A stretch of DNA of 64,000 nt from a virus. Lineage: Duplodnaviria; Caudoviricetes. The position numbers were made by a program, and so were the translations under genes. The notes beneath the pieces are model-generated. The model saw only the letters and a list, made by a program, of their open reading frames with translations. It was not told the DNA's origin and made no database searches. The stretch lies in IMG/VR virus record IMGVR_UViG_3300047375_000738; one strand, 5' to 3'. This document shows positions 27,660-50,319 of the stretch, piece after piece (position 1 is the stretch's first letter; every line of letters begins with the position of its first letter).

Positions 27660-28374
27660 GTTGTTTCTCGTAGCTATTAACAATAAGTTCGCAGAATTCT
27701 TTTCTTTTATTTCCAAGGTAGCAATGTGCTATCAAATGAATTCTATCCTTGCTGCTATTGTTTATTACACTATGGTCATTAAAAATATTAACCATAAATG
27801 CACTATGTGATTTAAATGGAACACACCCGTTATCTTTTATAGTCATATGACAATCGTTAGGATGATCAATAGCAATGTTAACCGGCAGTGGATAATCAAA
27901 TAAATTATCAATGTTTATCATCGGACTGTAATCGTTATGAGGAGAAATCCATCCACCTGCTGCTAGTTTCATAAAACGTATTCTAGCATATCTTTCTGCA
28001 GGAAACGTATTATTAAAAAAAGATTGTATGTTTTTAGTTTTGTTTCCTAGTTCTGTCCATTGATAGTCTGGCTCTGATTCATAACCGTAAGTTTGCCAAA
28101 CATTTGTTTTATCAGTATCGATGCCATGTAACGCACAACTACTCCAACCATAATGAGAGCCTTCTCCTGAAAAAATATCTCTATGTGCAACATAATAGTC
28201 ATCTGCATATGCACTTTCAGACAACCAATCTGGCATAGTAAAGTCAAACTCAACCCAATGATAGCCGTGTCCTGAGAATATCCATTTTACTTTGTCTTCT
28301 AAACTATAATCCGGCAAAGGCTTTGGGGTAATTTTAACGTCTTTGTAAGCGTTATAAAATTCTATCTGATCCAT
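27634..28374 (-). CDS. 2OG-Fe(II) oxygenase, aspartyl/asparaginyl beta-hydroxylase-like
   Basis: RIRFMKLAAGGWISPHND (HxD), HSVINNSSKDRIHL (distal His, Arg). Confidence 0.8.
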   Translation of the reverse strand: MDQIEFYNAYKDVKITPKPLPDYSLEDKVKWIFSGHGYHWVEFDFTMPDWLSESAYADDYYVAHRDIFSGEGSHYGWSSCALHGIDTDKTNVWQTYGYESEPDYQWTELGNKTKNIQSFFNNTFPAERYARIRFMKLAAGGWISPHNDYSPMINIDNLFDYPLPVNIAIDHPNDCHMTIKDNGCVPFKSHSAFMVNIFNDHSVINNSSKDRIHLIAHCYLGNKRKEFCELIVNSYEKQHAKIQSQV

Positions 28375-30474: not shown

Positions 30475-31361
30475 TTCGTTATATTTACATCCGCTGCACA
30501 AGTACACCAATCTCTTGAACAAATTACTGCTACTTCGGGTCTTTCAAATGTATCTTTGTATATATTACCTAAACTACCGCCTACTCTACACGTAGCACGA
30601 TGTACATCTCCGTCCCAATTAATCATTAAACTTTCAATTCCTGCTTTACATTGCCATCCTTTAAACATATTTAATTTGTTTTTAAGTAAGTCATTTGTAT
30701 GTACTAAATCTTTACTATCAACAAGTGTGTTTGCTTTTGCTGTAGTTTGCACACTTTTAATCCACTCAAGGTCTTCTAGGTTATAGCGCATATCGTCAAA
30801 CCAGTCATGTCGTTCTGTCCAGCGTATACGTCTGAGACTAAATGGAATATTGTGTTCGATTAAAATTCTAGTTGCAAGTTTCACTTCATCCATGTAATCG
30901 TGGTGTGCCATAACCATAACATGGTAGTCTTTTGGGTGTTTACCACCACCTAATGTTCCTGCTAGAATTCTAATTGTTTCAACACGGTCATACCATTGCT
31001 TATCCTCAAAGTGTAAACTAAGTACAAGATAATTAACATCTAAATCTTGATAATATTCTGGCTTTCTTGTAATGTTTGTAGTTACACTCAACCAGTTTAT
31101 TTTAGGTCTAGCATAATTTACTAGTTCTTCAAACTGTGGGTGTACACACGGCTCGCCACCTGTGAAACTTATACGTACATTTTCAATTTCTGCAAGTGTA
31201 TCAACCGTTTTATACAGTGTTGATAAGTCTTTGTGACTGCTAAAATTGTCGTGTATTTCCGCAGGACAATATGTGCAATCTAAATTGCAACGCTTGCCTA
31301 AGTTCCACTCAACTTTAACACTATCTCTATAGTGCGGCCATCTATTTTCTACGCTAAACAT
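30465..31361 (-). CDS. Radical SAM protein, C-terminal SPASM/twitch-like
   Basis: CNLDCTYC, TGGEP, GWQCKAG..C..ICSRDWCTCAAD. Confidence 0.9.
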   Translation of the reverse strand: MFSVENRWPHYRDSVKVEWNLGKRCNLDCTYCPAEIHDNFSSHKDLSTLYKTVDTLAEIENVRISFTGGEPCVHPQFEELVNYARPKINWLSVTTNITRKPEYYQDLDVNYLVLSLHFEDKQWYDRVETIRILAGTLGGGKHPKDYHVMVMAHHDYMDEVKLATRILIEHNIPFSLRRIRWTERHDWFDDMRYNLEDLEWIKSVQTTAKANTLVDSKDLVHTNDLLKNKLNMFKGWQCKAGIESLMINWDGDVHRATCRVGGSLGNIYKDTFERPEVAVICSRDWCTCAADVNITKWK

Positions 31362-32599
31362 ACTTTTTCAAAAGGTCCTTGGCTGCGACTATTGTCTAGT
31401 CTGCGATTAAATGCAAGTGTATCATTCCATTTATCGCTTAAATCTTGTGCCTTTAAAAAATTAATGTTGTCTTGGATTTGTTGTATTGTCATTGGTAATA
31501 ATTGCGGATGCATAGACATGCATGACCAGTGTTCTACTATTGTTAGTAATTCTTCTAATTGTTGAATTACTTTATATTTATATTCTGTTGGCATGCATTG
31601 CGCACTTAGTACATTTGGATAGTTTACTCTATGCGAATAAAATACAATACCCATATTATTTAAGAAATAGTCAATAATTTTTGGTAATTGCATAACATTA
31701 CCTACTTGTACTGTACATGCACCTACAACATAATCTACATTTTTAAAACTTTGGAATACTTTTACATTTTCTTCTACTTCAGCAAAGTTGCCATTTCCTC
31801 TAATATAACTATAAACATCATGTAACCCATCAATGCTTACGTTTACACTAACTTTTTTAAACTTAGGCCAATAGTCGTGTATTGTCCTACCGCCCTTTAT
31901 ACCCGTCACTGTGCCGTTTGTAGCGTACTTTATTTCTATGTTGTCTCCGTATGGTGCTAACATATCTAATATTCGGTAATGAGTAGGATCCATCAACGGT
32001 TCACCACCTGCAAATTCAACTCTACGAAAGTAAGGTAGCAGTTTTTCTAAGTTTGACCAAAAGTTTTGGTCTTTTTCAAAGATGCCTATATAAGGGGCTT
32101 TGGTAAGTCCTAGTCCTCTTACAGCATCTACTAGATAGTTGCCTTCTTCTTTGTAAAACTCTTCAACTTCTTCCCAATCTTTCCATTGTGTACTATCTAA
32201 AGGATTGCACATGCGACATTTAAGATTACATAAGTTATTAATTTTAATTTCTATAGTTGGCAACTCAAAAGGCATTGTAAAATCGTCATTAAGAGTGTCC
32301 AACGCATTTGGATATAGATTTATTCTACTTTCAGGAAAGCTATCACGTATATGACGTTGACGTAAACTTTCAACGCCTTGTGCTTCTAAGTCAAAACACG
32401 GTACACATTCAGCAGGCATTTCGTTGTTTAGTACCTGCTGACGTACTCTACGCATGTTTTCATTGTTCCATGCACTTTCTAAGCTCTCATTTTGTATCCA
32501 TCCAATAGGTTGGCTACGGCAACACACTTTAATTGCACCATCTTCTCTAGTTGCTAGTCCTGTAAACGGGTGCATACAAAATGTTTTACTTGATTGCAT
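31349..32599 (-). CDS. Radical SAM protein with N-terminal twitch domain
   Basis: Start reassigned to ATG 32599 (MQSSKTFC). FCMHPF..VCC..CVPC, CNLKCRMC, AGGEP. Confidence 0.9.
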   Translation of the reverse strand: MQSSKTFCMHPFTGLATREDGAIKVCCRSQPIGWIQNESLESAWNNENMRRVRQQVLNNEMPAECVPCFDLEAQGVESLRQRHIRDSFPESRINLYPNALDTLNDDFTMPFELPTIEIKINNLCNLKCRMCNPLDSTQWKDWEEVEEFYKEEGNYLVDAVRGLGLTKAPYIGIFEKDQNFWSNLEKLLPYFRRVEFAGGEPLMDPTHYRILDMLAPYGDNIEIKYATNGTVTGIKGGRTIHDYWPKFKKVSVNVSIDGLHDVYSYIRGNGNFAEVEENVKVFQSFKNVDYVVGACTVQVGNVMQLPKIIDYFLNNMGIVFYSHRVNYPNVLSAQCMPTEYKYKVIQQLEELLTIVEHWSCMSMHPQLLPMTIQQIQDNINFLKAQDLSDKWNDTLAFNRRLDNSRSQGPFEKVCLA

Positions 32600-33281
32600 T
32601 TTGTATACCCCATTCACGTTCTTTACACCAAAAACATTTGCCACAAACTGGAACTTTCTCATATGGTGTGTATGTAGTATAGTCAATGCCTTCAAACTCG
32701 CCTTCGCAACTGCGTGTAATTTCTAAAAGTTCGCCTATGTTGTTATCTACATATTGTTTTATAATCCAGTCTTTGCGAACATTGGTAAAAGGATGACATA
32801 TAGATGCACCCATGTGTTTCATTTCAATTGGTAAACGTGCAGTTTCTCTATCATCAAGTTTGCCATCAAATTTTTCAGTTGGATTTAGTGTAACACCAGC
32901 ATACCATGCATCAAGTTTATACAAATGACCAATGTATTCGTTGTGTGAACGCAGTATAACACGATTGCCGGACTTCATTGATCCGTATTCATCTTTAATT
33001 AAGTACTCGGTTGGCTCTTCCATCTCTGGAGGTATAAATCCTTCAATGTGTTCTATACGATTATTAAATTTTTCTCGAAACCAACCAACAACATCCTTAG
33101 CAATCCATCGTTGCCACGGTCTAGTTTTCCACATACGTACTTGTGTTGTAAAATATATATCAGCATTTGTATTACTCAAGACAAGATATGCTAGTAGAGC
33201 GCTATCAGCACCGCCACTTAGACTAATACCTATTCTTTTCCATTCTTGTTCTAAAGGAATGTAAACATTATCGATCTTCAT
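32586..33281 (-). CDS. QueC-like PP-loop ATP pyrophosphatase (adenine nucleotide alpha hydrolase superfamily)
   Basis: ISLSGGADS PP-loop and TRSC...CGKCFWCKER Zn site. Orthology to true QueC is not shown. Confidence 0.7.
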   Translation of the reverse strand: MKIDNVYIPLEQEWKRIGISLSGGADSALLAYLVLSNTNADIYFTTQVRMWKTRPWQRWIAKDVVGWFREKFNNRIEHIEGFIPPEMEEPTEYLIKDEYGSMKSGNRVILRSHNEYIGHLYKLDAWYAGVTLNPTEKFDGKLDDRETARLPIEMKHMGASICHPFTNVRKDWIIKQYVDNNIGELLEITRSCEGEFEGIDYTTYTPYEKVPVCGKCFWCKEREWGIQNAIK

Positions 33282-33286
33282 GCTGT

Positions 33287-33314
33287 ATTATAACACATTT
33301 TAGTAATGTGTCAA
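33287..33314 (-). promoter_or_regulatory. Sigma70 promoter, extended -10, leaderless
   Basis: TTGACA, 16 nt, TGn-TATAAT, then 5 nt to ATG 33281. Confidence 0.7.
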
Positions 33315-34132: not shown

Positions 34133-34789
34133 ATGATTACTAACACTGAATTCACAACAACTCCTGCTAAACTTTCAGAAGCTCTTATGATGTGTCAATC
34201 CATGACTGGCAAAAGTGTACTTAACAAGCCGACCAACGATTTCTTTTATGACACTTGGGAAATACTACCAGAGTATAAAGGTACAGTATTTGACGAATTA
34301 CTTGCACCGTTAGAGAATATCGGCGAAGCAAGGATTATAAAACAAGAGTCGGGAACATGTTATTTTGCACACACTGATGTTGATAATCGTTATCATTTAA
34401 ACATCAGCGGCGATTGTGCTTCATTAATTGATTTAGATGCAAACAAAATGTATCCTCTTAAAGCTGATGGCAAATACTATTCAATGTATGCTGGCAAAAG
34501 TCATAGTGCTGCTAACTTTGGACAGTATCCTCGATACCAATTAGTAGTTAGGCAGTTATTAACACGATCTCTATGGGTGTATAAAGATATCTCAATATAC
34601 CCTGGAGGTGAAAATCCTCGTTATATGTTTGATAAATTTATTAGTCCAATACTAAATCAAATGGATTATCGTAACGTGATGAATAACTTTGAAGTATTAG
34701 AAACAGGTGTACGACTTACAACAAATCAACACTGGGCAAAATCAATTAAAGACATTTTGCCTATTGGATTTAAGATAGTCGAGCACTAA
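34133..34789 (+). CDS. AspH-like 2OG-Fe(II) oxygenase with C-terminal extension
   Basis: ARIIKQESGTCYFAHTD..RYHL..HSAANFG..RYQL. Confidence 0.7.
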   Translation: MITNTEFTTTPAKLSEALMMCQSMTGKSVLNKPTNDFFYDTWEILPEYKGTVFDELLAPLENIGEARIIKQESGTCYFAHTDVDNRYHLNISGDCASLIDLDANKMYPLKADGKYYSMYAGKSHSAANFGQYPRYQLVVRQLLTRSLWVYKDISIYPGGENPRYMFDKFISPILNQMDYRNVMNNFEVLETGVRLTTNQHWAKSIKDILPIGFKIVEH

Positions 34790-36157
34790 TTGTTTTTCTT
34801 CTTTGGAACTATTATTTCCGTATTTGTCTAAGTTACAATCCCACCCAATTGCTAAATGTGCCCACATATAATCAGGAAATAATGTTTTCCAATTTGAACT
34901 TTTCATGAACGTATTGTTCTTATATTTTTTATATACTAGGTCTTCGTGATTATTTTTTATGCCTAAGTTACGCATATCTTTCCAAAACTTGCCATTTCCT
35001 TTTTTACAAAGTGTATAATGGGCAAGAATAAAAAATGCTGCATCATCAAAACATTGTGGAATAATATTGTCAAATAACTTATCATTTTGAAAATTTATTG
35101 TATCTACAGCTCTATAAATTGTAGCAAGTGTTAAATACAATGCATTAGCTTCCATAGGTTCAATAAATCCTGCTGCTAATCCTATTGCAAAAACATTACC
35201 TGATCTAGGATTTTTCATTCTGGCAGGTGTCCACTTTAAAACTCTTGGTTCTAGTAAATTGTCTTTCTCGTTTTGTAGTAAATAATTCTTTACTTCTTCG
35301 TCTGTAAAATATTCATCACTAAATGTAATTCCTGTTCCAGTCCTATGTTGTAATGCAATTTTGAATTGCCATCCAAACTCGTTGCGTATTGTTCTTGTAA
35401 AAACTTTTTCATTTTTGTTTTTAATAGGCATAACTATAGTGGTATTAGGTTTATTGTCTTTATACAAAGCAAGTTCGTCCGAAACACTGTTTATCAATAG
35501 TCTTGAAAATCCTGTGCAATCTAGCCAGTAATCGCTTTCTATTTCTGCACCATCTACTGTAACACTTTTAATACCATTGCTGCTACATGTAACGTTTGAA
35601 ACTTTACCTTCGATAAAGTTTATACCTAAGGGCACAGATATATTATTAATTACCCAGTTTGCCATTTCGTTAGCATCTATATGATGCGATAATACATATG
35701 ACTGTTTTGTTGATTTTGGTATTTGATTTTGCAAAACTGAGTCATACAACTCATAGTAAGTTTCTTGGAAACTATTTACATCTTTATCTTTATATAAATC
35801 AATACAAACATCTAAGTAGTTAGGTTTTCTACAATCTAAATATGTATTTAAATCGTAACTATACAACTTGTCTATTGGTTTATTAAGTGTAAACCCAAAG
35901 TGCTGATCTTCGTCGGCCCAATTCTCAAAACAGTTTGTTAATTTTGTTGTACAATTTACATTTTTTATCCATTTTGATTGATCAACGCCAAACTGTTCTA
36001 AAAACGCCCATATATGTGGAGTAACACTTTCGCCGACACCAATTGTTGGAATATTTTTGCTATAAATTTGTACAACTTCTGCATCAGGAAAATTTTTCTT
36101 AGCCCAAGCACCAGCAAACGCACCTGCTGTTCCTGCACCTACTACTGTAATTTTCAT
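34742..36157 (-). CDS. Tryptophan-halogenase-family flavoprotein
   Basis: GAGTAG, IGVGES, TTKL..F.NW (catalytic-Lys region), DCTGF, GWQFKIA, GFIEPMEANA. Confidence 0.85.
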   Translation of the reverse strand: MKITVVGAGTAGAFAGAWAKKNFPDAEVVQIYSKNIPTIGVGESVTPHIWAFLEQFGVDQSKWIKNVNCTTKLTNCFENWADEDQHFGFTLNKPIDKLYSYDLNTYLDCRKPNYLDVCIDLYKDKDVNSFQETYYELYDSVLQNQIPKSTKQSYVLSHHIDANEMANWVINNISVPLGINFIEGKVSNVTCSSNGIKSVTVDGAEIESDYWLDCTGFSRLLINSVSDELALYKDNKPNTTIVMPIKNKNEKVFTRTIRNEFGWQFKIALQHRTGTGITFSDEYFTDEEVKNYLLQNEKDNLLEPRVLKWTPARMKNPRSGNVFAIGLAAGFIEPMEANALYLTLATIYRAVDTINFQNDKLFDNIIPQCFDDAAFFILAHYTLCKKGNGKFWKDMRNLGIKNNHEDLVYKKYKNNTFMKSSNWKTLFPDYMWAHLAIGWDCNLDKYGNNSSKEEKQLVLDYLKSNRQNVFN

Positions 36158-37122
36158 ATTGTTTGCGTCCTATCAATTTTACGCAGGTTATTATCTACTT
36201 TGATTTCTTTAACTTGTTTCATTACAGCAGAATGAGACAATTGATCTAAAACGTTTTGTTCGTCAATTGTGCCTGTGTAGTAAATTATACATTTGTCATT
36301 AACATTCCGACAAAGTGCAAGATCGGCACCTGCCTTTACAGTTATCATTTCCACTTGTTCTGGGTATACTCTAACTCCACACTCGCCTAACTTGAACATA
36401 TTTAGTTTACGTCCTACAAGTTTATATCCATCGTCTGTTTCTTCAACTAAATCTCCGCTTTGCCACCAATCGCCTTGTATTTTCCAACGTGCATGTATTT
36501 CGTTATCAACAATTTTAACATCAACATTAGGATTACCTTCTAGTGTATATGTGTTTGGTATTTCGCTCATTAGCACGTTTGGCGGAACTTCGGTTGCACC
36601 ATAAACATTGTAAACTTTTTGTGCACCTTTGTTGCGTAAATCCTCTAAGCACCCAACAGCAGTGTAGTCACTGCCTATAATACACTGCTCATAGCTACTT
36701 AGGTCCAAGTCATTCCAACGTCGATGCTTGTGTAATACTCTCCACATATTAGGAAGTATCAAACCGTGTGTAGGACGTATCTCATGCACCCTGTCTACAA
36801 ACCTTGGACCAACTTCGGTTTCTATGTAAAGCTCACTGTTAGCTAATAAACAAGGATACAAACTCATTACGGTAAATGCAATACCTCTTGTGCTGTAAAG
36901 ACTGAGCATCTTACTAGATTCTTTTAAACCAAACCACTCTGCATTAAATTCGCTAATGTGTCTTGTGACTTCCTTACTATGTGTGACGCTACGTGGATAT
37001 CCTGTAGTGCCGCTAGTGTTTACAGTAACTTCCCATTCTTCAATTTTGTCAATTACATGAGAACGCATTATATCATTGTCGCTTTCAGTATACAGAATAC
37101 CGTCAATAAAAATTTTATACAT
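36154..37122 (-). CDS. Compact adenylate-forming (ANL/acyl-CoA ligase-like) enzyme
   Basis: TSGTTGYP P-loop, YGATE, SGDL, GRK..K...RVYP..VE, C-terminal RKIDR Lys. 322 aa. Confidence 0.8.
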   Translation of the reverse strand: MYKIFIDGILYTESDNDIMRSHVIDKIEEWEVTVNTSGTTGYPRSVTHSKEVTRHISEFNAEWFGLKESSKMLSLYSTRGIAFTVMSLYPCLLANSELYIETEVGPRFVDRVHEIRPTHGLILPNMWRVLHKHRRWNDLDLSSYEQCIIGSDYTAVGCLEDLRNKGAQKVYNVYGATEVPPNVLMSEIPNTYTLEGNPNVDVKIVDNEIHARWKIQGDWWQSGDLVEETDDGYKLVGRKLNMFKLGECGVRVYPEQVEMITVKAGADLALCRNVNDKCIIYYTGTIDEQNVLDQLSHSAVMKQVKEIKVDNNLRKIDRTQTI

Positions 37123-37715
37123 TACATATCCTCCGCTAAAAATTCAGCTTCTTTCCAAAGATTGTTTTTCCAATTTTGTAAATAAAATTCTGTATTTAAT
37201 TTCCAAAAATCTTGAAAGTTGTTTCTATAATCTAATTCAATGGGATCTTCTAAATATCCTAGTTTGTTCATAATAGTTGCCCAAGTCCTATGAACTTTAA
37301 TTTGTGCACCTGCTTCATTGTCGTTAGTGCTTATATATAATGGCTTATCAGAACCACAATATTTAATACAAATTGGTAGTAAAAATTGACTAGTATAATG
37401 ATTCATAGGAGCACGCCTATAATTTTGCACTAACAATGCTTTAGGACCATCTATTAAATGGCTCAACATACATGTTCGTACGCCAATGCGATAAGCATTA
37501 TCACCTAATATGTTTAGTTCTTCAAGACTATGTAAACATACACTTCCTACTACATCCTTATTCCAATATAGAAGATATGTTTTATAATCATTTAAATGTT
37601 TCATATTATCATGTAACACTTTTTGATTACAGTTGTTGTAGTACCCTCTTTCTTTGGCATTGTTATAAAAACTTGTTAAGTCGAGATCTTCTGAAAACTC
37701 CTTAATACTAAACAT
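37122..37715 (-). CDS. GNAT-like acyltransferase (tentative)
   Basis: LLYWNKDVVGSVCLH..YRIGVRTC beta-strand pattern. Start reassigned to ATG 37715. Confidence 0.4.
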   Translation of the reverse strand: MFSIKEFSEDLDLTSFYNNAKERGYYNNCNQKVLHDNMKHLNDYKTYLLYWNKDVVGSVCLHSLEELNILGDNAYRIGVRTCMLSHLIDGPKALLVQNYRRAPMNHYTSQFLLPICIKYCGSDKPLYISTNDNEAGAQIKVHRTWATIMNKLGYLEDPIELDYRNNFQDFWKLNTEFYLQNWKNNLWKEAEFLAEDM

Positions 37716-38388
37716 ATATTTCTTTAGCCCTTTCAATAAAGCTATCTGGGTAGTTTGATTTAAAACTTTCTAAGCAAATTTGTGCATACGTACTCCAAGG
37801 TGCGCTATCTGTTACTTTTATATTCTTAGCATCTAAATATTTTAGTAGTTTGTCTTTTCGGTCATTGCTTATATGATCTAAAACTTCAGTAATTGCTACA
37901 TGTTCTTCGTTGTCGTTATAGCAGAAAAAATGATTAATATTTTTTAGTTTACCGTCTACAACAAAAAAGCTACTTGGATGTAAGCTATATTTCCATATAC
38001 CTGCACGTCTGTAATTTTTTAAGATACTAATTATTTGATCCTGCCAACCAGGCAAAATGTTATTATAGTTTTCTTGATTACAGTTTGCTAGTTGCCAAAA
38101 GTCATCTCCTTCGATATTAAAAATAATCTCTCTAGTATCCATGTCAATGTGCTGTATTTCTAAAACATGTTCAGGAAAAGATTTAAGCATTTGTTTGGTA
38201 AATTTTATTTCTCTTTGCCATCTTGTCTCGAGTGCATCTTCAGATAAACATTTGTTCATATGATACATTTGATCATACTTATAGTGTACACTAAAAAGTT
38301 TGTTTTGTCTATCTATTTTACTAGTGTATACTAAATTATTTCTACACAAGCCAACACCTGGCACATGATTATAATAGTATTCAAACAT
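37708..38388 (-). CDS. Protein-kinase-like fold protein with altered catalytic motifs (tentative pseudokinase)
   Basis: REIKF helix and KYSLHPSSFFVVDGKLKNIN, resembling HxDLHPxN...ID. Confidence 0.4.
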   Translation of the reverse strand: MFEYYYNHVPGVGLCRNNLVYTSKIDRQNKLFSVHYKYDQMYHMNKCLSEDALETRWQREIKFTKQMLKSFPEHVLEIQHIDMDTREIIFNIEGDDFWQLANCNQENYNNILPGWQDQIISILKNYRRAGIWKYSLHPSSFFVVDGKLKNINHFFCYNDNEEHVAITEVLDHISNDRKDKLLKYLDAKNIKVTDSAPWSTYAQICLESFKSNYPDSFIERAKEIYV

Positions 38389-40253
38389 TAACTATACAAC
38401 GGAATAAATTTTGTCTCGCCATTTACTGTTGCCTGTAACCAGCTATCTGGTGTGCTTGTATTACTTGGTGTTACACCTGTTTCGCCTGATACTTTAAATT
38501 CATTAAGTGTAGTAGCTAGTTTACCTTCGCTGTCGAGGATCATATAATTTACACTATAATCTTGTGCTTGTGTTTGAAAAACAAGTTCGCCTGGTGCCCC
38601 ACGCTGATCTCCAGCATTTACATCAAAAGTTGCTCCATCAGGAATTCTGCCATATATGTTTGCAACAAGAGCAAATTTCTCACCTCCCTCCATGTTATCC
38701 ATTGTACTATCTTCGTAGTCTTCGTTAACATCAATTGCTGCTGCCCAGCCAATTGAAGGTAGTTTATGTCCAGCTTCAACGGATTCAGGCGCAAGCCATG
38801 TTCCGCCTACTGCTTCGAGACGTACTCCTTGCTGAATCCAATCCGGAATGTTTGGACTAACATTTCTAAAAAACTTACCACTCAAGCAAGGATTACTATA
38901 TATTGATTCAACTACAACTGATATACCATCAGATTTAATTTGTACACTATCCATGTCGATGTCAGTACATATAACATTGTCTGAGTATAGTGTACGAGTT
39001 GATAGTGTGTTTGCACTTGGGTCAAATACTTCCAATCCGTTGTTGTCAAACAAATATCCAGTTAAACTTACATTTGACCAATGTTTTGTTGTTGCATCAA
39101 ACAATGTTCCGTCGTTGTGTGTAATATTACCAGCAAAGGATCCATCTAGATGACCAAACAGTTCTGTTGCTCTTACTCTACGCGAACTCCACATATCAGA
39201 ACTAGCGTCATACGCATAAGTCTGATCTTCGTTAAGTATGTTACCAGTAAAGTTACCGTATACATTTGCAGTAATAGGTTGTTCAAATTCACCTCTAACT
39301 ACGTCAAAAATAGTGTCTTGTGTGTTTGGATGAATAATATTACCAGCAAGCGAAGTAGCCACTGAATTATTCACTACGCCGTAAAATATACCAGTGTTAT
39401 AATCTAATAGTACAGCTCCGTGAGCATCGAGAATATTAGCTTTTACTTTTGGATTAGTGATACTAGTTGACAATATTGTATTTCCGGCTTCATCAGAAAT
39501 ATTGCCAACAAAAGTTCCGTAAAAACTTTCACTGTCGTTATTATATAGTATGTCTCCGCTATTTCTTCCAATAATATTACCAACTAAGTCGCCACGGTAT
39601 TGTCCGTTGGTTTGATCAATAAGTAAACTGCCGTCTGACATACTACGTATGCTACCACTAAATACTCCGTGAAACGTTCCGTTGTCGTGGTCGAGAAGTA
39701 CAGCACCACTTGGGTCAATTATATCGCCTTGTAAACTTGCATTTTTAAATAATCGATCAGCAGTATTAAATACTTGAGCACCATTAGATGCATACATATT
39801 TCCGCTTAATGATGCACGTAATACAGGTTCGTCTGCATCCATAGCAAGTATAACAGAGTCTAGACTATCTTTAAGGTCGCCATGAAAGTTGCCTTTGAAC
39901 GTGCGTGTTTCTAAATCAAATCCGACATATCCGTTAGCTCCGATAATGTTTGCTTGGAGAGGTACATTAACTGATTGACTGTCAATGATAGTATCGCCAA
40001 ATGTATCTATCATTGAACCTCGTAGTTTTCCAGAAAACTGTCTAGTATCTGGATCGTATGCAATATTATTTGTACTATCAAAAACTGATCCAACTAATGA
40101 TCCGTAAAATTTAGCTGCTTCAGTATCGACAACAATTGTGTCTACACTGTTTGAAAGGCTTGCACTAATTCTTCCTGTATTGCTATCTACAATAATTGAG
40201 CTATCTGCTCCAACAATATCGATTCTATATTGTCCACCTTCGTATAATTCCAT
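38388..40253 (-). CDS. Repetitive trimeric fibre-like virion protein (621 aa)
   Basis: Many ~22-25 aa GxF/LxGxLxGxIxD repeats, C-terminal WLQATVNGETKFIPLYS cap. Preceded by TATAAATA and AGGAG. Confidence 0.6.
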   Translation of the reverse strand: MELYEGGQYRIDIVGADSSIIVDSNTGRISASLSNSVDTIVVDTEAAKFYGSLVGSVFDSTNNIAYDPDTRQFSGKLRGSMIDTFGDTIIDSQSVNVPLQANIIGANGYVGFDLETRTFKGNFHGDLKDSLDSVILAMDADEPVLRASLSGNMYASNGAQVFNTADRLFKNASLQGDIIDPSGAVLLDHDNGTFHGVFSGSIRSMSDGSLLIDQTNGQYRGDLVGNIIGRNSGDILYNNDSESFYGTFVGNISDEAGNTILSTSITNPKVKANILDAHGAVLLDYNTGIFYGVVNNSVATSLAGNIIHPNTQDTIFDVVRGEFEQPITANVYGNFTGNILNEDQTYAYDASSDMWSSRRVRATELFGHLDGSFAGNITHNDGTLFDATTKHWSNVSLTGYLFDNNGLEVFDPSANTLSTRTLYSDNVICTDIDMDSVQIKSDGISVVVESIYSNPCLSGKFFRNVSPNIPDWIQQGVRLEAVGGTWLAPESVEAGHKLPSIGWAAAIDVNEDYEDSTMDNMEGGEKFALVANIYGRIPDGATFDVNAGDQRGAPGELVFQTQAQDYSVNYMILDSEGKLATTLNEFKVSGETGVTPSNTSTPDSWLQATVNGETKFIPLYS

Positions 40254-40270
40254 GGCACTCTCCTATACAT

Positions 40271-40278
40271 TATTTATA
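40271..40278 (-). promoter_or_regulatory. T4-type late promoter TATAAATA
   Basis: Exact box, followed by AGGAGAG and ATG 40253. Confidence 0.65.
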
Positions 40279-40291
40279 GGTTTTTTTGGAC

Positions 40292-40320
40292 TTGACATAC
40301 CGTTTAGAATCATATATAAT
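40292..40320 (+). promoter_or_regulatory. Consensus sigma70 promoter, leaderless
   Basis: TTGACA, 17 nt, TATAAT, then 6 nt to ATG 40327. Confidence 0.8.
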
Positions 40321-40326
40321 GTAATT

Positions 40327-42246
40327 ATGTTTGATATTGTATTTGTAGGAACCAACGAAGAACAGTTTAACAAACTCAAGCAAAAAGTCTTTATTGCAAA
40401 AAAAGCCGATAGTGTTGAAAAAGCACAGCAAATTAGCCTAACTAAATTTCTTTGGATTGTGTATGACGATTTAGAAATTGCAAATGACTTTGAGTTTGAT
40501 TACACTCCTGACGACTGGAGTCAAGATGTTGCACATGTTTTTTTAAATGGCAAAGACTACGATGGTATATCTCTTATACCCAAGCATATAAAATTTAATG
40601 TAAAAGAAACACAGCATAGATTTTATGTACAAAGTAAAAAAGTTGAAGTACTAGCAAGTAATCCTGTTGCATATGATCATTTCTATGTAGATACATACGA
40701 AGAATATTTACATGCAATGCAAACATCAAAAACAGAAATGTTTTGGATAGATAGTCGTAATATTAAATCTACATTACCGGACATTTATTTTACACACCAC
40801 GACACATACAATCGAAAGGAAAATCATGCATTTATACATGATGTTAATGAGCGGAGAATATACAACGGCTTATTTTTATGTTCAAGACAAAAATCACTCA
40901 GTGAAAAAGAAATAAACTTTAGACATTTGGTAAGTCGTAAAGAATGGGATATAGTTGGTTCGACTGCAACAACTTATGATGTTTTTGAAATAGATACATA
41001 CGATGACTATTTGTATGCACTTGAAAATAGTAAAACAGAAATGTTTTGGATGAGTAGTGCAAATATTAGCGTTGACCTTCCTGATATATATTTTACACAT
41101 GACAATGCGTATGACAGAATGACTAACCACTCTTTCTTACACGTTAACAATAAACGCAATGGTTTGTTTTTGTTGTCAAAGCACAAGCAAGTGACCAAGC
41201 GAGAAATAGAGCACCGGCACATAGTTGGTTGTAAAGAATGGGATATAGTCGGTAGTGGACCGATTGAGTATGCAAAGTACTATCCTAAAGTATACGAAGA
41301 CTATCTTGATGCGTTACAAAATTCGCCCACTGAAATGTTTTGGATTATTCCACCTTATGTAAATCCAACAGCACGTTTTGCATTTGACACTTACTTTACA
41401 CACGATCAAACATATGACAGAAAAATTAACCATGCATATCTTAATGGAAAGTATCATGACGGCATAGTATTGTGTAGTAAGAACGGCAAGTTTAGTAGGC
41501 GAGAGTTTGACTATAAGTTTATTGCAAACAAAAAAGAAGTAAACATTGCAATTAGTACACCCAAGCCATATGATATAGTTTTTATTAGTTACCAAGAACC
41601 AAATGCTGATGAAAATTATGAACGTATACTTCAACGCTTTCCTCGATGTAAACGTGTACATGGAGTAAAAGGTATCCACCAAGCACATATTGCAGGCGCA
41701 AAATTATGCAACACAGAGTTGTTTTGGATTATTGATGGAGATGCAACTATTGTAGATGACTTTAACTTTGATTACCAAGTTGCACGTTGGGACAAAGAAA
41801 TGGTACATGTATGGCGCAGTCAAAATCCAATCAATGATATGGTATATGGGTATGGCGGTGTAAAACTATTTCCAACTGACTTGACTATCAATATGGATAC
41901 TAGCAAGCCTGACATGACAACTAGTATTAGTACTAAGTTCAAAGCAGTGCATGACATAAGCAACATTACTGCATTCAATACAGATGCATTTAATAGTTTT
42001 AAAAGTGCATTTAGAGAATGTACAAAACTTAGTAGTAAAGTAATTGATAGGCAAAAGAACGAAGAAACAGAAGAACGTTTGCGTATTTGGACAACAGTAG
42101 GAAAAGATCGTCCTTATGGAGAGGATGCTATTAGAGGTGCAAGAGAAGGCGCAGCATATGGCATGGCCAATCAAGGCAACACCGAAGCTCTCAAAAAGAT
42201 AAACGACTTTGATTGGTTAAAGGAGCAATTTGATGGAAACATTTGA
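40327..42246 (+). CDS. Multi-repeat GT-A glycosyltransferase-like protein
   Basis: Start reassigned to ATG 40327 from the promoter position. Four degenerate ~100-aa units, then an intact YDIVFISYQEPNA..RVHGV..WIIDGDA domain. Confidence 0.7.
   Translation: MFDIVFVGTNEEQFNKLKQKVFIAKKADSVEKAQQISLTKFLWIVYDDLEIANDFEFDYTPDDWSQDVAHVFLNGKDYDGISLIPKHIKFNVKETQHRFYVQSKKVEVLASNPVAYDHFYVDTYEEYLHAMQTSKTEMFWIDSRNIKSTLPDIYFTHHDTYNRKENHAFIHDVNERRIYNGLFLCSRQKSLSEKEINFRHLVSRKEWDIVGSTATTYDVFEIDTYDDYLYALENSKTEMFWMSSANISVDLPDIYFTHDNAYDRMTNHSFLHVNNKRNGLFLLSKHKQVTKREIEHRHIVGCKEWDIVGSGPIEYAKYYPKVYEDYLDALQNSPTEMFWIIPPYVNPTARFAFDTYFTHDQTYDRKINHAYLNGKYHDGIVLCSKNGKFSRREFDYKFIANKKEVNIAISTPKPYDIVFISYQEPNADENYERILQRFPRCKRVHGVKGIHQAHIAGAKLCNTELFWIIDGDATIVDDFNFDYQVARWDKEMVHVWRSQNPINDMVYGYGGVKLFPTDLTINMDTSKPDMTTSISTKFKAVHDISNITAFNTDAFNSFKSAFRECTKLSSKVIDRQKNEETEERLRIWTTVGKDRPYGEDAIRGAREGAAYGMANQGNTEALKKINDFDWLKEQFDGNI
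40672..41568 (+). repeat. Three ~100-aa intragenic tandem repeats
   Basis: Units start at 40672, 40975 and 41269 (Y..Y..A...S.TEMFW...YFTH...Y.R..NH...KEWDIVGS). Confidence 0.85.
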
Positions 42247-43198
42247 ATTACTAGATAGATTTGAATTACTCTATCCGACTAATTCAAAGTTATCAGATCT
42301 ACGCAGAGTATATATTGATCATGATTTAAGTAGTTTATTTAGATTGTTAAATGCAGATGAAGAATTGCGCAAAGCAATAATGGAAGAAAACTTGCACAGT
42401 ATTTTTAGAACTATAGATAGTCACGATACTGAAGATCTACGCAAAGCTGTTATAGAAAAAAATTTACATAGCATTTTTAGAATTCTTGGTGATGATGATT
42501 TGCGCAAACTTGTATTAGAAGATAACATATATAAGTTATGGCCAATTCTTGATAGATATGTAAATACACAATTTACAGCAGCCTTTAAAAACTTTTTTGT
42601 AAACGAAACAGAAATATGGAATGATTGTTTTAGTAGAGGGCAGCTAGAAAGTAAATTATGGCTAGTAAATGAACTTGACAAGTTGGATGTAGAACTAGGA
42701 ACAGTGTTTTTATGTGCAGGATGGTATGCTACACTTGCAGTAATGTTATTTGAAAGTAACATTAAGTTAGATAATGTTAGATCTTTCGACATAGATCCAA
42801 GATGTGTAGATATTGCAGAAGTGTTTAACAAGCCTTGGGTAATGAAAGATTGGAAATTTAAATCATCAATACAAGACATATATAATATAAATTATAATCA
42901 ACATACATATGCTGTCAAACGCAGCGACGGTAGTCAGGTAAATTTAACAGACTCTCCTAATACTGTTATAAACACAAGTTGCGAACATATTGAAAACTTT
43001 GAAGAATGGTATGCAAAGATTCCTACTGGTAAATTAGTTGTATTACAAAGTAATAATTATTATGAAGTGCAAGAACATGTTAATTGTGTTAGAAGTATAG
43101 AAGAGTTTGCAGTAAAAGCACCTATGAATAATATTTTATATAGTGGCGAATTAGAACTGCCCAAGTACAAGAGGTTTATGTTAATTGGATATAAGTAA
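42233..43198 (+). CDS. SAM-dependent methyltransferase-like protein with N-terminal helical repeats
   Basis: AGGAG plus ATG 42233. LCAGWY, SFDID, INTSCEH. Confidence 0.6.
   Translation: METFELLDRFELLYPTNSKLSDLRRVYIDHDLSSLFRLLNADEELRKAIMEENLHSIFRTIDSHDTEDLRKAVIEKNLHSIFRILGDDDLRKLVLEDNIYKLWPILDRYVNTQFTAAFKNFFVNETEIWNDCFSRGQLESKLWLVNELDKLDVELGTVFLCAGWYATLAVMLFESNIKLDNVRSFDIDPRCVDIAEVFNKPWVMKDWKFKSSIQDIYNINYNQHTYAVKRSDGSQVNLTDSPNTVINTSCEHIENFEEWYAKIPTGKLVVLQSNNYYEVQEHVNCVRSIEEFAVKAPMNNILYSGELELPKYKRFMLIGYK
42290..42541 (+). repeat. Four ~20-aa repeats (D/E)LRKAxxExNLHSIFR
   Basis: Visible in the translation, units 2 and 3 nearly identical. Confidence 0.75.
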
Positions 43199-45206: not shown

Positions 45207-45758
45207 ATGGAAAATCTAACTACCTATAAAAGTAATAAAAAATTTTTAGAAGAAAGGTACAATCTAATAGCCAGTGGCACTAATAAAAAAGTTTATTACA
45301 ACGGTAATAATAATATTGTTTTCAAACTATTTGAAAATCCTAATATATTGGAAGGCGAAATAGTAAGATACCAAATACTAATTGAGAACAATATAAACTT
45401 TTTTACACCAAAATTAAAAATTGTTAATAAATTTGTTTGTGTAAGTCAATTTGCTGCACCAATAAAATTAAAAGATAACCACCGAGTTGCTTACAATTAT
45501 AATATAGCTATTATGGATCCTCAACTTGTATTTCTCAAAACAGATCCAATTAAAAACACAATGTGGAAGAATGTTTGCAATGAAACAGTAGATAGTAAAG
45601 GACTTACTCCTATCTATAATTGGGGAATTAGGAATAACAAAATATTGCTTTTAGATATAGAAACAATTTTGCATAATAAGGTAGTTGATTTTTTCAAGGA
45701 TAGTCAAATTATTGATAAATTTAGAGAAGTAATGCGAGCAGATCAATACTATGAATAA
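45207..45758 (+). CDS. Kinase-like hypothetical protein (tentative)
   Basis: IASGTNKKVY..VFKL and NWG..ILLLDIE. Very AT-rich. Start reassigned to ATG 45207. Confidence 0.4.
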   Translation: MENLTTYKSNKKFLEERYNLIASGTNKKVYYNGNNNIVFKLFENPNILEGEIVRYQILIENNINFFTPKLKIVNKFVCVSQFAAPIKLKDNHRVAYNYNIAIMDPQLVFLKTDPIKNTMWKNVCNETVDSKGLTPIYNWGIRNNKILLLDIETILHNKVVDFFKDSQIIDKFREVMRADQYYE

Positions 45759-47157
45759 TAAAGTAAGTGATACATTTTGTTTATTACCCTGGGTGCATCT
45801 AAGCACAAGACCAGATGGTAGTATGCGAGTATGTTGTACAGCAAATGCAAGTTCAGTTGGCCCTACCAACGATAAAGCACACGGCGGGCAAGTAGGTATT
45901 CTTAAAGATGATGAAGGAAGACCTAACAACTTAAACGTTAGTGATTTTCAAACAGCATGGAATAGCGAGTATATGAAAAATGTTCGCAAGCAAATGCTCA
46001 ACGGAGAAAAGCCGCCAAGTTGCTTGAAGTGCTACAAAGAAGAAGCTGCTGGACATCGCAGCAAACGCATGTGGGAAACACACTATTGGAGTGAGCGTGT
46101 AGATGTAGATAAAATACTACAAGAAACAAACGAGGACGGCAGTGTTCCGCCTAACTTAGCATATATTGATTTGCGGTTTGGCACAAAGTGTCAGTTAGCA
46201 TGTGTAATGTGTAGTCCACATGACAGTAGTGGCTGGATAAAGGATTATAAAAAGATTTTTCCTGAAGTAAAAAATGAATCACTCAAAGAGATTATGCAGT
46301 GGGACAACAAAGGCAGCACTAATGGCAGTAGTTATAATTGGCACAAGCAAAATCCTGTATTCTGGCAACAGTTTTATGAACAGATGCCTAGTATGCAACA
46401 AATTTATTTTGCTGGTGGTGAAAGTCTTATTATTGAAGAACACTATGAAATACTTGAACATGCAATTAAAATGGGTTATGCAAAAGATCTTGAACTGCGA
46501 TATAACTCAAACGGAGTTGAGTGGAGAGAGGATTTATTTGATCTGTGGAAAGAATTCAAATTAGTACGATTCCACTATTCAATAGACAGCATTAAAGAGA
46601 TGAACGATTACATTCGTTATCCAAGTGAATGGAAACGACAAGAAGAAGTATTTCACATTCTTGATACACAAACTACAGATAATGTTGAAATCACTATAGC
46701 GTGTGCAGTACAAGCACTTAATGTATATTACTTGCCAGACTTTATTCAATGGAAGCTAGAGAAGAAGTTTAAAAAGATTAACATGTGGCCATTTGGCGCA
46801 GGCGGTATTAGTCAGCACTTTGTATATTGGCCTGCACATCTAAATGTCAAGAGCTTGCCTGCAGACTTCAAAGCTAAGTGCAGAGCAAAATACGAAGCAT
46901 GGTATCCCTGGTGGGAAGCTAATTGGGAGCTAGGTATTCCGGATTGGCACAAAGGTAAAGTAGAGTACGAACAGTGGCGAAGTGCTGAATATGGTATTAA
47001 AAGACTAAATGGTATTCTCAGTTTTATGGAAAGCGAAGACTGGAGCCAACGCTTGCCCGAGATGAAAGAGTTTTTAGGATTATGTGATCGGCAACGTGGA
47101 AACAGTTTCGATGAAACATTTCCAGAGATGAAAGATATTTTTAAGGATATAGAATGA
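45751..47157 (+). CDS. Radical SAM protein with N-terminal twitch domain, close paralog of 23234..24613
   Basis: FCLLPWVHLSTRPDG..CCTANAS, CQLACVMCSPHDSS, AGGES. Confidence 0.9.
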   Translation: MNNKVSDTFCLLPWVHLSTRPDGSMRVCCTANASSVGPTNDKAHGGQVGILKDDEGRPNNLNVSDFQTAWNSEYMKNVRKQMLNGEKPPSCLKCYKEEAAGHRSKRMWETHYWSERVDVDKILQETNEDGSVPPNLAYIDLRFGTKCQLACVMCSPHDSSGWIKDYKKIFPEVKNESLKEIMQWDNKGSTNGSSYNWHKQNPVFWQQFYEQMPSMQQIYFAGGESLIIEEHYEILEHAIKMGYAKDLELRYNSNGVEWREDLFDLWKEFKLVRFHYSIDSIKEMNDYIRYPSEWKRQEEVFHILDTQTTDNVEITIACAVQALNVYYLPDFIQWKLEKKFKKINMWPFGAGGISQHFVYWPAHLNVKSLPADFKAKCRAKYEAWYPWWEANWELGIPDWHKGKVEYEQWRSAEYGIKRLNGILSFMESEDWSQRLPEMKEFLGLCDRQRGNSFDETFPEMKDIFKDIE

Positions 47158-49650: not shown

Positions 49651-50319
49651 TTTGTAACTATTCCATAATCTATCGGGCCACGTTGTACCTTTTTTTCCGT
49701 GTACAATCAAATGATATCTATCATCGTTACTATTATTGTACACACAATGTTTATTATAAAGATTAAGCATAATAACACTTCCTTGTTGAAAAGGTAGATA
49801 TCCTATATCTTCCATATAAAACTTGCAATCTTCTGGGTTGTTTAACGCAATATTAATAGGACCTAATCTTGCTTCGTCTAAATCAAATACATCTTGATGT
49901 AAATCTATATAACCACCTGGACGCAATTTCATAATTCTTATTCTGTCATACAAGTTGTACCCAAATGACTTTTTAAAAAAACGTGTTATTGTTGGACAGA
50001 AGTTACTTATATCAGTCCATTTATAAGGCGCATTGTTTCTATCAGGAAATCCATACCGAGAATGATGATCAGTGTGTACACTACTTAATCCATGTATACA
50101 TAAACTTTGCCACCCATCACTTTCTTTTGCTCTATGTGTAACATATTGATCGCTTAATGATTTAGCTTCTTTTAGCATTTTCTCCCATTTAGCATTTTCA
50201 AATCCTGCTATAGGAAGAAACGGTATGTTCTTTGCCTTATACAATTTATCGATGCTATCGATGTTTTTATCATATACTTGTTTTGCAGGATAGTTGTATT
50301 GTTCGATAAATTTATCCAT
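49639..50319 (-). CDS. AspH-like 2OG-Fe(II) oxygenase, paralog of 27634..28374
   Basis: GWQSLCIHG, RIRIMKLRPGGYIDLHQD, HCVYNNSNDDRYHL. Confidence 0.8.
   Translation of the reverse strand: MDKFIEQYNYPAKQVYDKNIDSIDKLYKAKNIPFLPIAGFENAKWEKMLKEAKSLSDQYVTHRAKESDGWQSLCIHGLSSVHTDHHSRYGFPDRNNAPYKWTDISNFCPTITRFFKKSFGYNLYDRIRIMKLRPGGYIDLHQDVFDLDEARLGPINIALNNPEDCKFYMEDIGYLPFQQGSVIMLNLYNKHCVYNNSNDDRYHLIVHGKKGTTWPDRLWNSYKLHA

Follow-up and report, generated by a model that had tools for sequence, protein, structure and literature searches.

The DNA analysed here, called the window below, is a 64,000-nt stretch of a viral genome, and the locus under study is a block of five genes on its minus strand. Read 5' to 3', these genes encode proteins of 621 aa (40253-38388), 226 aa (38388-37708), 197 aa (37715-37122), 322 aa (37122-36154) and 471 aa (36157-34742). 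The length of the 197-aa protein was counted from an ATG, and the list of open reading frames also offers a TTG start farther upstream. The block is preceded by an exact copy of the T4-type late promoter box TATAAATA (40271-40278, minus strand) and by a Shine-Dalgarno sequence, AGGAG (40260-40264, minus strand), which was read from the sequence and is followed after 6 nt by the ATG at 40253. The first gene ends and the second begins within TAATG, the second and third share the 8 nt ATGTTTAG, the third and fourth again meet in TAATG, and the fourth and fifth overlap in ATGA. The promoter, the AGGAG, the five reading frames and all four junctions had been given in a preliminary description of this DNA, and we confirmed each of them. 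On the minus strand, the five-gene unit contains neither terminator-like sites nor strong sigma70-like promoters, and the reading of the block as one unit is supported by its sequence.

The box TATAAATA is rarer than expected in the window (7 copies, 13.6 expected), and six of the seven copies lie 5-30 nt upstream of the first open reading frame of a gene block, which is the behaviour of a genuine T4-type late promoter. It heads most gene blocks of the genomic island in which the unit lies, including the five-gene unit itself. Two island operons carry sigma70-type (early) promoters, and the island is therefore not purely late. A sigma70-type promoter, TTGACA-17-TATAAT (40292-40320, plus strand; 12/12 match), serves the gene that diverges from the unit. 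The window contains no tRNA genes. Translational coupling of the five genes had also been proposed. The overlapping junctions are present, and coupling is what we infer from them, not a special feature of this block, because start/stop overlaps are the norm throughout the tightly packed window. Contigs from RNA libraries of separate studies span the junctions between the first and second and between the second and third genes. This evidence consists of assembled contigs, from which strand, transcript ends and levels are not readable, and DNA carry-over is possible; most of the fourth gene is uncovered by them, a gap that carries no conclusion. Near-identical DNA was present in 14 runs, every one of them flagged as a possible source sample and thus not independent support.

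The 621-aa protein (38388-40253, minus strand) is very probably a homotrimeric all-beta fibre, as judged from its homologues, alignments, repeats, a three-copy model and its C-terminal cap. It begins with a conserved anchor (MELYEG..YRIDI), continues as a shaft of beta repeats about 24-25 residues long up to about residue 420, and closes with a C-terminal domain ending in the conserved cap W-L-x4-V-N-G-x4-I-P-L-Y-S; the secondary structure is all-beta and periodic. An AF2 monomer model (pLDDT 52) was too poor for a fold search. When residues 330-621 were modelled in three copies, the score was 0.85, compared with 0.00 for the best of three controls; agreement between runs was 93% or more of contacts, with a partner pLDDT of 84 or higher. 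Among proteins of solved structure, 20 of 30 one-chain pairs and 1 of 23 single chains attained the 0.85 mark, counts that were obtained with two copies and the proteins' own alignments and hold only roughly for the three-copy model. The predicted trimer, which could lean on remembered fibre folds, is intertwined along all 292 residues tested, with the final strand on the three-fold axis (contacts 617-617 and 618-618).

A profile of the C-terminal region matched 174 representative proteins, and the same cap ends 81 of the best 150 of these. Among 66 full-length ones, at least 34 begin with an RRGT-type N-terminus, and of ten sampled for the Pfam domain Mtd_N, four proved to carry it. In a distant homologue of the fibre, the repeat tract matches cyanophage genes named 'structural protein'. 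The 621-aa protein itself gave no Pfam or PHROG match, and no relative in cultured phages was found among 50,697 phage records by megablast of the 6.5-kb region or by tblastn of the fibre. A search with the C-terminal 190 aa at E values up to 10 returned chance matches to Mannheimia spanins only. Neither the fibre nor its cap has a paralogue in the 170-kb contig, and none of ten cap-bearing protein clusters carried an informative name. The cap-bearing protein P0114 matched cultured phages (tblastn) only by its N-terminal Mtd-like start and one tail-fibre repeat. Plant LRR receptors, which appeared as a PDB match to the fibre profile (E 3e-7), were rejected, as the match reflects mimicry via a common 24-residue period and not homology. 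By these searches, the 621-aa fibre represents a family without previous annotation.

T4 fibritin is a trimeric phage fibre with a C-terminal trimerisation cap, the foldon. Like fibritin and the Mtd-type fibres (Bordetella phage BPP-1, PF18454), the 621-aa protein is predicted to be an obligate homotrimer with a repeat-built beta shaft, and its cap is also found on proteins that start with Mtd_N. However, no similarity to fibritin, gp12, gp34 or gp37 could be detected in its sequence, and its N-terminal anchor is of its own type. The preliminary description of a repetitive fibre-like gene behind a late promoter is borne out by the repeats, the three-copy model and the shared cap, and the trimer prediction that it had suggested gave the result above. 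A different reading, in which the protein is non-structural, for example a scaffold or a very large precursor acted on by the radical-SAM and oxygenase enzymes of the island, is highly improbable. The motif [DN]-x5-[FY]-x-G occurs seven times at about 24-residue spacing (0.85 expected) and loosely recalls the targets of Asp/Asn hydroxylases, the island holds several PF05118 and radical-SAM/SPASM genes, cultured phages offer no homologue, and the N-terminus is unlike those of three canonical fibre paralogues encoded upstream. The intertwined trimer prediction, the cap common to Mtd_N-bearing proteins, the cyanophage matches of the distant homologue and the late promoter ahead of the gene nevertheless argue for a structural protein.

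The last gene of the unit (34742-36157, minus strand) encodes a 471-aa protein that belongs, by family, to the flavin-dependent halogenases of the Trp-halogenase type. PF04820 matched residues 2-440 (E 1e-65, 222.8 bits, cut-off 21) and phrog_2928 matched with an E value of 8e-79; the PDB matches were 9luq (1e-42), RebH (9e-40) and VirX1 (9e-27). The GxGxxG motif is kept as VVGAGTAG, the catalytic-type Lys (K79 in PrnA) is represented by that of ...TTKLTNCFENW, which pairs with the 9luq Lys in the alignment, and the conserved Glu is present in GFIEPMEAN. The protein thus resembles VirX1, RebH, PrnA and Thal in fold family, FAD motif, Lys and Glu, and VirX1 is a viral precedent. In contrast to the Trp-family enzymes, which are about 510-550 aa long, it is shorter and its WxWxIP motif is degenerate (W-Q-F-K-I-A), and its similarity to VirX1 is weak relative to the best PDB match. 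The variant GWxFx[IV] is common to all five phage relatives examined.

The 322-aa protein (36154-37122, minus strand) is an N-terminally truncated adenylating enzyme of the ANL type. Its PF00501 match (E 1.7e-16, 60.4 bits, cut-off 29.9) begins at residue 36 of 322 and covers profile positions 170-359 only, so that about the first 170 positions of the AMP-binding profile, corresponding to the N-terminal subdomain, are absent. The PDB matches are acyl-CoA ligases and NRPS A domains, which are entered at about residues 150-330 of those chains. The core motifs TSGTTGYPR, YGATE, SGDLVE and GRK..KLGE are present and are also kept in an allele from a related lineage (L004) that is 42% identical, in a locus where the flanking genes are 92-94% identical. 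The same truncation is seen in an unrelated phage contig (L016), in which a halogenase again lies beside the truncated ANL gene.

The 226-aa protein (37708-38388, minus strand) has a kinase-like fold with substituted catalytic residues, as indicated by AF2, Foldseek, VIA-align and a profile alignment. Its model (pLDDT 95.3) has the bilobal kinase fold, and all of the best 50 Foldseek matches listed are kinases. VIA-align matched it to Rio1 (Z 12.7, rmsd 3.3, 166 residues aligned) and to the IRAK3 pseudokinase (Z 12.1). It shares a compact fold of about 220 residues with RIO1/RIO2, Bud32/PRPK and the IRAK3 pseudokinase domain (Z 11.8-12.7, rmsd 3.3-3.6, 160-185 residues aligned), but unlike these it has Ser135 in place of the catalytic Asp of HRD, Ser140 in place of the metal-binding loop Asn and Asn152 in place of the Asp of DFG, and the profile alignment to TTK revealed no VAIK Lys in the beta3 region. 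These replacements are invariant across 25 homologues, which suggests a conserved non-kinase function; the protein would be a pseudokinase or a repurposed enzyme. By language-model features, the nearest families are of the RIO and LPS-kinase (Kdo/WaaP) types, and in other phage proteins the kinase-like domain is fused to GT25. The labels 'halogenase', 'adenylase' and 'pseudokinase' had been assigned before this analysis and hold for these three proteins. The label 'GNAT' for the 197-aa protein (37122-37715, minus strand) is a weak lead. In Atlas features, the protein scored 0.94 to a cluster whose members carry PF00583 in 15%; among its homologues, three of six matched FeeM (PF21926) with E values of 0.05-0.14 and one matched PF00583 with an E value of 0.1, all under the cut-off, and a profile search gave no PDB match. 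It is described here as a possible GNAT/FeeM-like acyltransferase.

The linkage of the five genes was surveyed from the kinase-like gene, which occurs in 412 viral contigs; the best 80 of these were dereplicated into 49 lineages, with 7-kb flanks, so a fibre gene farther off would escape the counts. The fibre gene lies directly upstream of the kinase-like gene in 7 of the 49 lineages, a GNAT-like gene lies downstream of it in 35, and an ANL gene lies within 7 kb in 4. Ten lineages have a halogenase gene within 7 kb, three of them with the fibre and seven without a fibre in the fetched flanks, and the kinase-like/GNAT-like pair is present at nine of these ten loci. The full set of five is confined to relatives whose kinase-like protein is at least 70% identical, where the gene order is kept (L004, L005, L011/L023 and L024). 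At 51% identity or more, the fibre and kinase-like genes are adjacent, usually overlapping, in every lineage, and a functional link between these two is therefore possible in that clade. Fibres at 43-48% identity are followed by the kinase-like gene alone, and more distant fibres stand alone. Judged from these neighbourhoods, the four enzyme genes are mobile modules, most often found apart from the fibre.

These data bear on the proposal that the unit is a dedicated cassette, in which a halogenated acyl group is adenylated and transferred to residues of the co-expressed fibre as the substrate. Five co-oriented, overlapping genes behind one late promoter, an order that is intact among the closest relatives, and the RNA-library contigs that bridge two junctions, subject to carry-over, are consistent with such a cassette. 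Trp halogenases directed at peptides and proteins also exist; SrpI is a peptide brominase that brominates a C-terminal Trp and is a precedent for a protein-bound Trp substrate (PMC10286304, PMC10858898). The fibre cap offers an invariant Trp605. However, Trp605 is equally invariant in the fibres at 43-48% identity, which have no 197-aa, ANL or halogenase gene beside them. Halogenase-bearing fibre lineages were represented by a single one, too few to single out Trp residues specific to them. Seven of the ten halogenase-bearing lineages are devoid of a fibre within 7 kb, and nine of the ten loci have the kinase-like/GNAT-like pair. The ANL is 58% different in phages that share 85-94% identity in the fibre, kinase-like and halogenase proteins, which is a misfit with one fixed fibre chemistry. 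The five genes proved largely unlinked among relatives, contrary to what the cassette proposal called for, and we regard a dedicated fibre-modification cassette as not supported and distinctly improbable.

The phage is an uncultured marine jumbo phage of the T4-like kind, and the surroundings of the unit place it in a hypervariable island with tail-fibre genes on its flanks. The upstream flank encodes a 4581-aa protein (phrog_10938, virion structural protein) and the three fibre paralogues, the downstream flank encodes a protein resembling a baseplate/tail-fibre connector, and the gene content of the island differs between relatives. The convergent 218-aa gene (34133-34789, plus strand), which belongs to the island core, is overlapped by 48 nt by the 3' end of the halogenase gene and marks the place at which the accessory genes were inserted; in relatives without these three, the kinase-like gene directly abuts it. 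On the other side, the divergent 639-aa gene (40327-42246, plus strand) encodes four degenerate N-terminal repeats and a C-terminal domain that is possibly GT-A-like. In L008, the corresponding protein has more repeats (1143 aa) and is 65% identical. The product of the 639-aa gene gave no Pfam match, and its Atlas scores for a glycosyltransferase (0.82-0.87) are below reliable thresholds, so this identity is a lead only. Genes of this type adjoin the fibre in those fibre-bearing loci that reach far enough upstream, and the steady neighbour of the fibre is this divergent, repeat-bearing, GT-like gene, not the halogenase set.

A search of the literature found no paper on this operon or island. 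The island resembles the host recognition cluster of pelagimyophages and cyanomyophages, a large hypervariable island that follows a giant VrlC-type gene in the structural part of the genome and mixes tail-fibre genes, glycosyltransferases and radical-SAM cassettes gained and lost between close relatives (PMC7029224). Both lie within the structural region beside a giant VrlC-type gene and tail fibres, but the present one has many more enzymes, with 21 radical-SAM matches in the contig and, in addition, a halogenase, a mini-ANL and a pseudokinase, and this fibre family and its co-transcription with enzymes are absent from that study; no cultured phage has this fibre. The glycosyltransferase-rich clusters have been read as modifying the host surface (PMC7029224), and a corresponding view of the present enzymes would have them unrelated to the virion, remodelling the host envelope, for instance to keep other phages out, or making a soluble halogenated metabolite, with the fibre as a mere neighbour in a recombination-prone island. 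The resemblance of the kinase-like fold to RIO and LPS-kinase types, the existence of viral halogenases such as VirX1 whose natural substrate is unknown (PMC8407142), the early-type promoters on two island operons and the free shuffling of modules among contigs are compatible with this view. We consider it unlikely, while leaving it an appreciable share of the probability, since the late box heads most island blocks and late expression is more in keeping with virion components than with superinfection exclusion, fibre and baseplate genes surround the island, and the unit contains no transporter or export gene.

The explanation that we favour, with a probability of about 0.6 for the whole, is that portable enzyme modules lie beside a new trimeric fibre family and act on a product of the island rather than on a residue of this fibre. 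The kinase-fold and 197-aa proteins would form a portable two-gene module of the island, usually placed opposite a 268-aa core gene, with the 218-aa, QueC-like and radical-SAM core genes close by; it would have come to sit behind the fibre gene in one clade. The truncated ANL and halogenase genes would be accessory add-ons inserted between the module and the convergent 218-aa gene. The halogenase would halogenate an aromatic, indole-type acid, the mini-ANL would activate an acid as an acyl-adenylate, the 197-aa protein, if GNAT/FeeM-like, would pass the acyl group to an amine, and the catalytically altered kinase-fold protein would bind or present the acceptor. Since the island core and the module travel together, the common product of the island is the most likely acceptor, and a residue of this particular fibre is not favoured. 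The favoured product would be a tailored decoration of the glycan type that is produced late in infection and may reach virion fibres; the GT25 fusions of the kinase-like fold and the possible glycosyltransferase beside the fibre are a lead to glycan chemistry only.

Decoration of the virion by the island is possible on this explanation. Mimivirus carries gene clusters for glycosylation of its fibrils. Glycans on mycobacteriophage capsids and tail tubes are another case of virus-encoded decoration (Freeman et al. 2023, PMC10527164, as cited in PMC12619734). As in such systems, structural-protein genes here adjoin putative viral sugar-tailoring enzymes, an arrangement that would produce a virion with a decorated surface, but the halogenase, the adenylase and about 20 radical-SAM enzymes have no counterpart there. 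A stronger version, in which the island is a virion-decoration factory that late in infection builds a tailored, maybe halogenated and amide-linked group and puts it on this trimeric fibre, with the mini-ANL and the GNAT-like gene as swappable specificity determinants, is improbable. If it were true, the phage surface that serves receptor binding or immune evasion would change through the swapping of enzyme cassettes and not of the fibre sequence.

In summary, if the enzymes decorated the fibre, it would be the first phage receptor-binding protein with halogenated or acyl modifications and would offer a chemical route to host-range change. The evidence points to a more ordinary case, a new fibre family in a hypervariable tail-fibre island with enzyme modules recombined beside it. 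The widespread C-terminal cap could nevertheless aid the recognition of fibres in marine viromes. The locus also brings to light a large viral family of putative pseudokinases in which one small protein is the usual partner, a truncated adenylating enzyme with sharp differences among phages that are otherwise nearly identical, and a clade of predicted phage halogenases with an altered signature motif.

A late promoter box (TATAAATA, 40278-40271, minus strand) is followed by AGGAG (40264-40260, minus) and by the ATG start of the 621-aa ORF (40253, minus). Five co-oriented ORFs lie downstream of the box, encoding proteins of 621 (fibre), 226 (kinase-like), 197 (ATG at 37715), 322 (ANL) and 471 aa (halogenase). 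Their junctions are, in order, TAATG, an 8-nt overlap (ATGTTTAG), TAATG and ATGA. Read from the sequence, the promoter, AGGAG, ORFs and overlapping junctions were all as the preliminary description had them. Neither a terminator-like hairpin nor a strong sigma70-type promoter was found within the block on the minus strand. The box occurs 7 times in 64 kb, compared with 13.6 copies expected, and 6 of the 7 immediately precede the leading ORF of a gene block; therefore, it behaves as a late promoter that is used and otherwise avoided. Translational coupling of the five genes would be plausible, yet unremarkable, because stop/start overlaps are the rule across the window. The 3' end of the halogenase gene shares 48 nt with the convergent 218-aa gene.

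Contigs from four RNA libraries cover portions of the fibre, kinase-like, 197-aa, halogenase and divergent genes and span the fibre/kinase-like and kinase-like/197-aa junctions; these contigs show neither strand nor transcript ends, and DNA carry-over is possible. Three sigma70-type promoters with a perfect 12/12 match lie within 11 kb: one heads the QueC-like/radical-SAM operon (33287-33314, minus), one heads the divergent GT-like gene (40292-40320, plus), and one is antisense inside a 322-aa gene at coordinates outside the ANL ORF (42891-42918, minus). A 152-aa antisense ORF (42879-42421) begins 12 nt downstream of the last.

The 621-aa protein has no Pfam or PHROG family match, and no relative was found in cultured phages. 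Nineteen metagenomic homologues (25–97% identity) start with the same near-invariant N-terminus (MELYEG..YRIDI) and finish in a C-terminus that is almost invariant, and the repeat region between the two varies. The repeat period is 24–25 residues, and the motif [DN]-x5-[FY]-x-G occurs seven times at a spacing of ~24 residues between residues 43 and 292 (window ~39378-40127), against 0.85 copies expected. In a 780-aa homologue (25% identity), the repeat tract also matches cyanophage 'structural protein' genes. A weak match to plant LRR receptors in the PDB was set down to the common repeat period. The motif loosely resembles the target consensus of Asp/Asn beta-hydroxylases, and PF05118 hydroxylase-family genes are present in the surrounding enzyme-rich island at 27634-28374 and 49639-50319.

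The AF2 monomer model of the 621-aa protein was all-beta and periodic, with low confidence (pLDDT 52). A three-copy model of residues 330–621 scored 0.85 (three controls were run, the best scoring 0.00) and showed ~1,230 inter-chain contacts over its whole length, contact agreement of at least 93% between runs and a pLDDT of 84–88. Contacts of residues 617 and 373 with their own counterparts place the chain on a three-fold axis in this model. Of 30 proteins whose solved structures are one-chain pairs, 20 passed the tool's mark, as did 1 of 23 known as single chains, but this calibration used two copies and its own alignments, so the counts hold only roughly; a pass in the three-copy test may also come from remembered fibre folds.

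A profile of the C-terminal 197 residues matched 174 representative proteins among 1.84 billion, and 81 of the best 150 of these matches end in a conserved cap, W-[LIM]-x4-V-N-G-x4-I-P-L-Y, which in the window occupies the last 50 fibre residues (38388-38540). The cap-bearing proteins (at least 81 representatives) range from 200 to 1650 aa and have at least three N-terminal types: Mtd_N-like RRGT, MELYEG..YRINI and MANRYPL. Among the 66 full-length ones, at least 34 start with an RRGT-type N-terminus, assigned by Pfam to Mtd_N in 4 of 10 sampled, and 14 carry the N-terminus of the 621-aa protein. The tail-fibre protein of the Bordetella phage begins with Mtd_N. Marine phage fibres in general may use the cap as a module for trimerisation or as a tip. 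The repeats, the predicted trimer and a cap common to Mtd_N-bearing proteins support the original naming of this gene as a fibre, and we put at about 85% the probability that its product represents a new family of trimeric phage fibres.

Among the labels given to the downstream enzymes, pseudokinase, ANL and halogenase were supported. The AF2 model of the 226-aa protein (pLDDT 95.3) retrieved protein kinases throughout the top 50 Foldseek matches listed, and VIA-align ranked Rio1 (Z 12.7), the IRAK3 pseudokinase domain (12.1), Rio2 and Bud32 in that order. In a profile alignment with TTK, the HRD Asp is replaced by Ser135, the loop Asn by Ser140 and the DFG Asp by Asn152, and the beta3 Lys is absent; these substitutions justify the label 'pseudokinase'. 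All four features are invariant in 25 homologues, which suggests a conserved new function. The 322-aa protein is an ANL adenylating enzyme that keeps all core motifs but is missing roughly 170 positions at the start of the profile. The 471-aa protein is a Trp-family flavin halogenase (PF04820, 1e-65), with 9luq and RebH as its best PDB relatives and VirX1 more distant; the FAD motif, Lys and Glu are retained, and WxWxIP reads W-Q-F-K-I-A, a variant also present in 5 of 5 phage relatives examined. The 197-aa protein gave weak GNAT/FeeM signals, and its GNAT label is a lead.

The preliminary description suggested that the unit is a dedicated fibre-modification cassette, in which, for example, a halogenated acyl group would be adenylated and transferred to the co-expressed fibre, and proposed synteny as a check. 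The full five-gene order is conserved in the related loci L004, L005, L011/L023 and L024 (kinase-like identity at least 70%); in L025 (70%), neither ANL nor halogenase was seen. Behind fibres at 43–48% identity (L001-L003 and 16 further loci) there is just the kinase-like gene, which in these loci directly adjoins the convergent 218-aa gene; the 197-aa gene is present as well in L033 and L058, and L033 also has a halogenase without ANL. Fibres at ~27–32% identity have no kinase-like gene behind them.

The kinase-like gene is present in 412 viral contigs, and the best 80 of these 412 loci form 49 lineages at 90% identity. In 7 of the 49 lineages the kinase-like gene has the fibre immediately upstream, and in 35 it has the 197-aa gene downstream. 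Ten lineages carry a halogenase within 7 kb, three of them with a fibre and seven without, and four carry an ANL gene within 7 kb. In the layout seen most frequently, the kinase-like and 197-aa pair is faced by a 268-aa gene, and 218-aa, QueC-like and radical-SAM genes lie nearby. On the unrelated contig L016, a halogenase is followed by a similarly truncated ANL. The enzyme genes are mobile relative to the fibre, and the comparative evidence gives no support to a dedicated fibre-modification cassette. In many related contigs, two or three copies of the kinase-like gene lie within 14 kb and frequently flank the 268-aa gene (L044, L045, L054, L055, L057, L061, L083, L089 and others); therefore, the family has expanded inside the island.

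Between the window and L004, protein identity is 85% for the fibre, 94% for the kinase-like protein, 92% for the halogenase and 42% for the ANL, and along the 197-aa protein it drops from 93% to 41%. Within the 197-aa/ANL stretch (36154-37715 vs L004:4829-6491), this looks like a swapped specificity sub-cassette of ~1.3 kb. The steady neighbour of the fibre gene is a divergent 639-aa gene (40327-42246), whose product has degenerate N-terminal repeats and a C-terminal domain that is possibly GT-A-like. The number of N-terminal repeats varies: the protein has 639 aa in the window and 737–851 aa in further relatives, and the version in L008 (L008:1122-4553) has 1143 aa. The C-terminal domain is 65% identical between the window and L008 and also matches a hypothetical protein of the Ralstonia jumbo phage RsoM2USA.

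The window comes from the minus strand of an IMG/VR viral contig of 170 kb (CheckV completeness 48%). Given a gp23 major-capsid match at the contig end and 21 radical-SAM matches in the contig, the majority within the window, the contig belongs, on sequence grounds, to an uncultured T4-like jumbo phage; a related contig has a length of 357,559 bp. Upstream on the same contig (123925-143900, before window position 1), the gene for a 4581-aa virion structural protein precedes a 202-aa gene; then come three fibre-like paralogues (698, 617 and 497 aa), of which the third runs into window 1-1080. These paralogues have a common N-terminal domain with a GQ[LI]WYD motif, unlike the N-terminus of the 621-aa protein. 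Past the opposite window end is a 967-aa protein with baseplate/tail-fibre-connector features. The giant structural gene, fibre paralogues and connector-like protein match the host recognition cluster of marine T4-like myophages, in which fibres, glycosyltransferases and radical-SAM cassettes are mixed and variable (PMC7029224). Several island radical-SAM proteins (31349-32695, 23234-24613 and 45751-47157) have an N-terminal SPASM-type Cys-rich domain before the radical-SAM core, the reverse of the usual order.

In summary, the unit is an operon behind a late promoter, with the predicted trimeric fibre as its first product, and it is improbable that the four enzymes modify this fibre directly. 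The kinase-like and 197-aa pair would instead be a portable tailoring module of the island core, with the halogenase and truncated ANL as accessories to it. Together, the enzymes probably make an activated, possibly halogenated, aromatic acyl group and transfer it onto the island's common product. A viral ESM Atlas cluster of 175 proteins of ~567 aa joins a kinase-like-fold domain (TM 0.63) to a GT25 LPS-type glycosyltransferase, a fusion which hints at a role in glycan chemistry for the pseudokinase family. Because most island operons carry the late box and the kinase-like fold is fused to GT25 in other phage proteins, we favour a late-made virion decoration as the common product, with fibres maybe as carriers.
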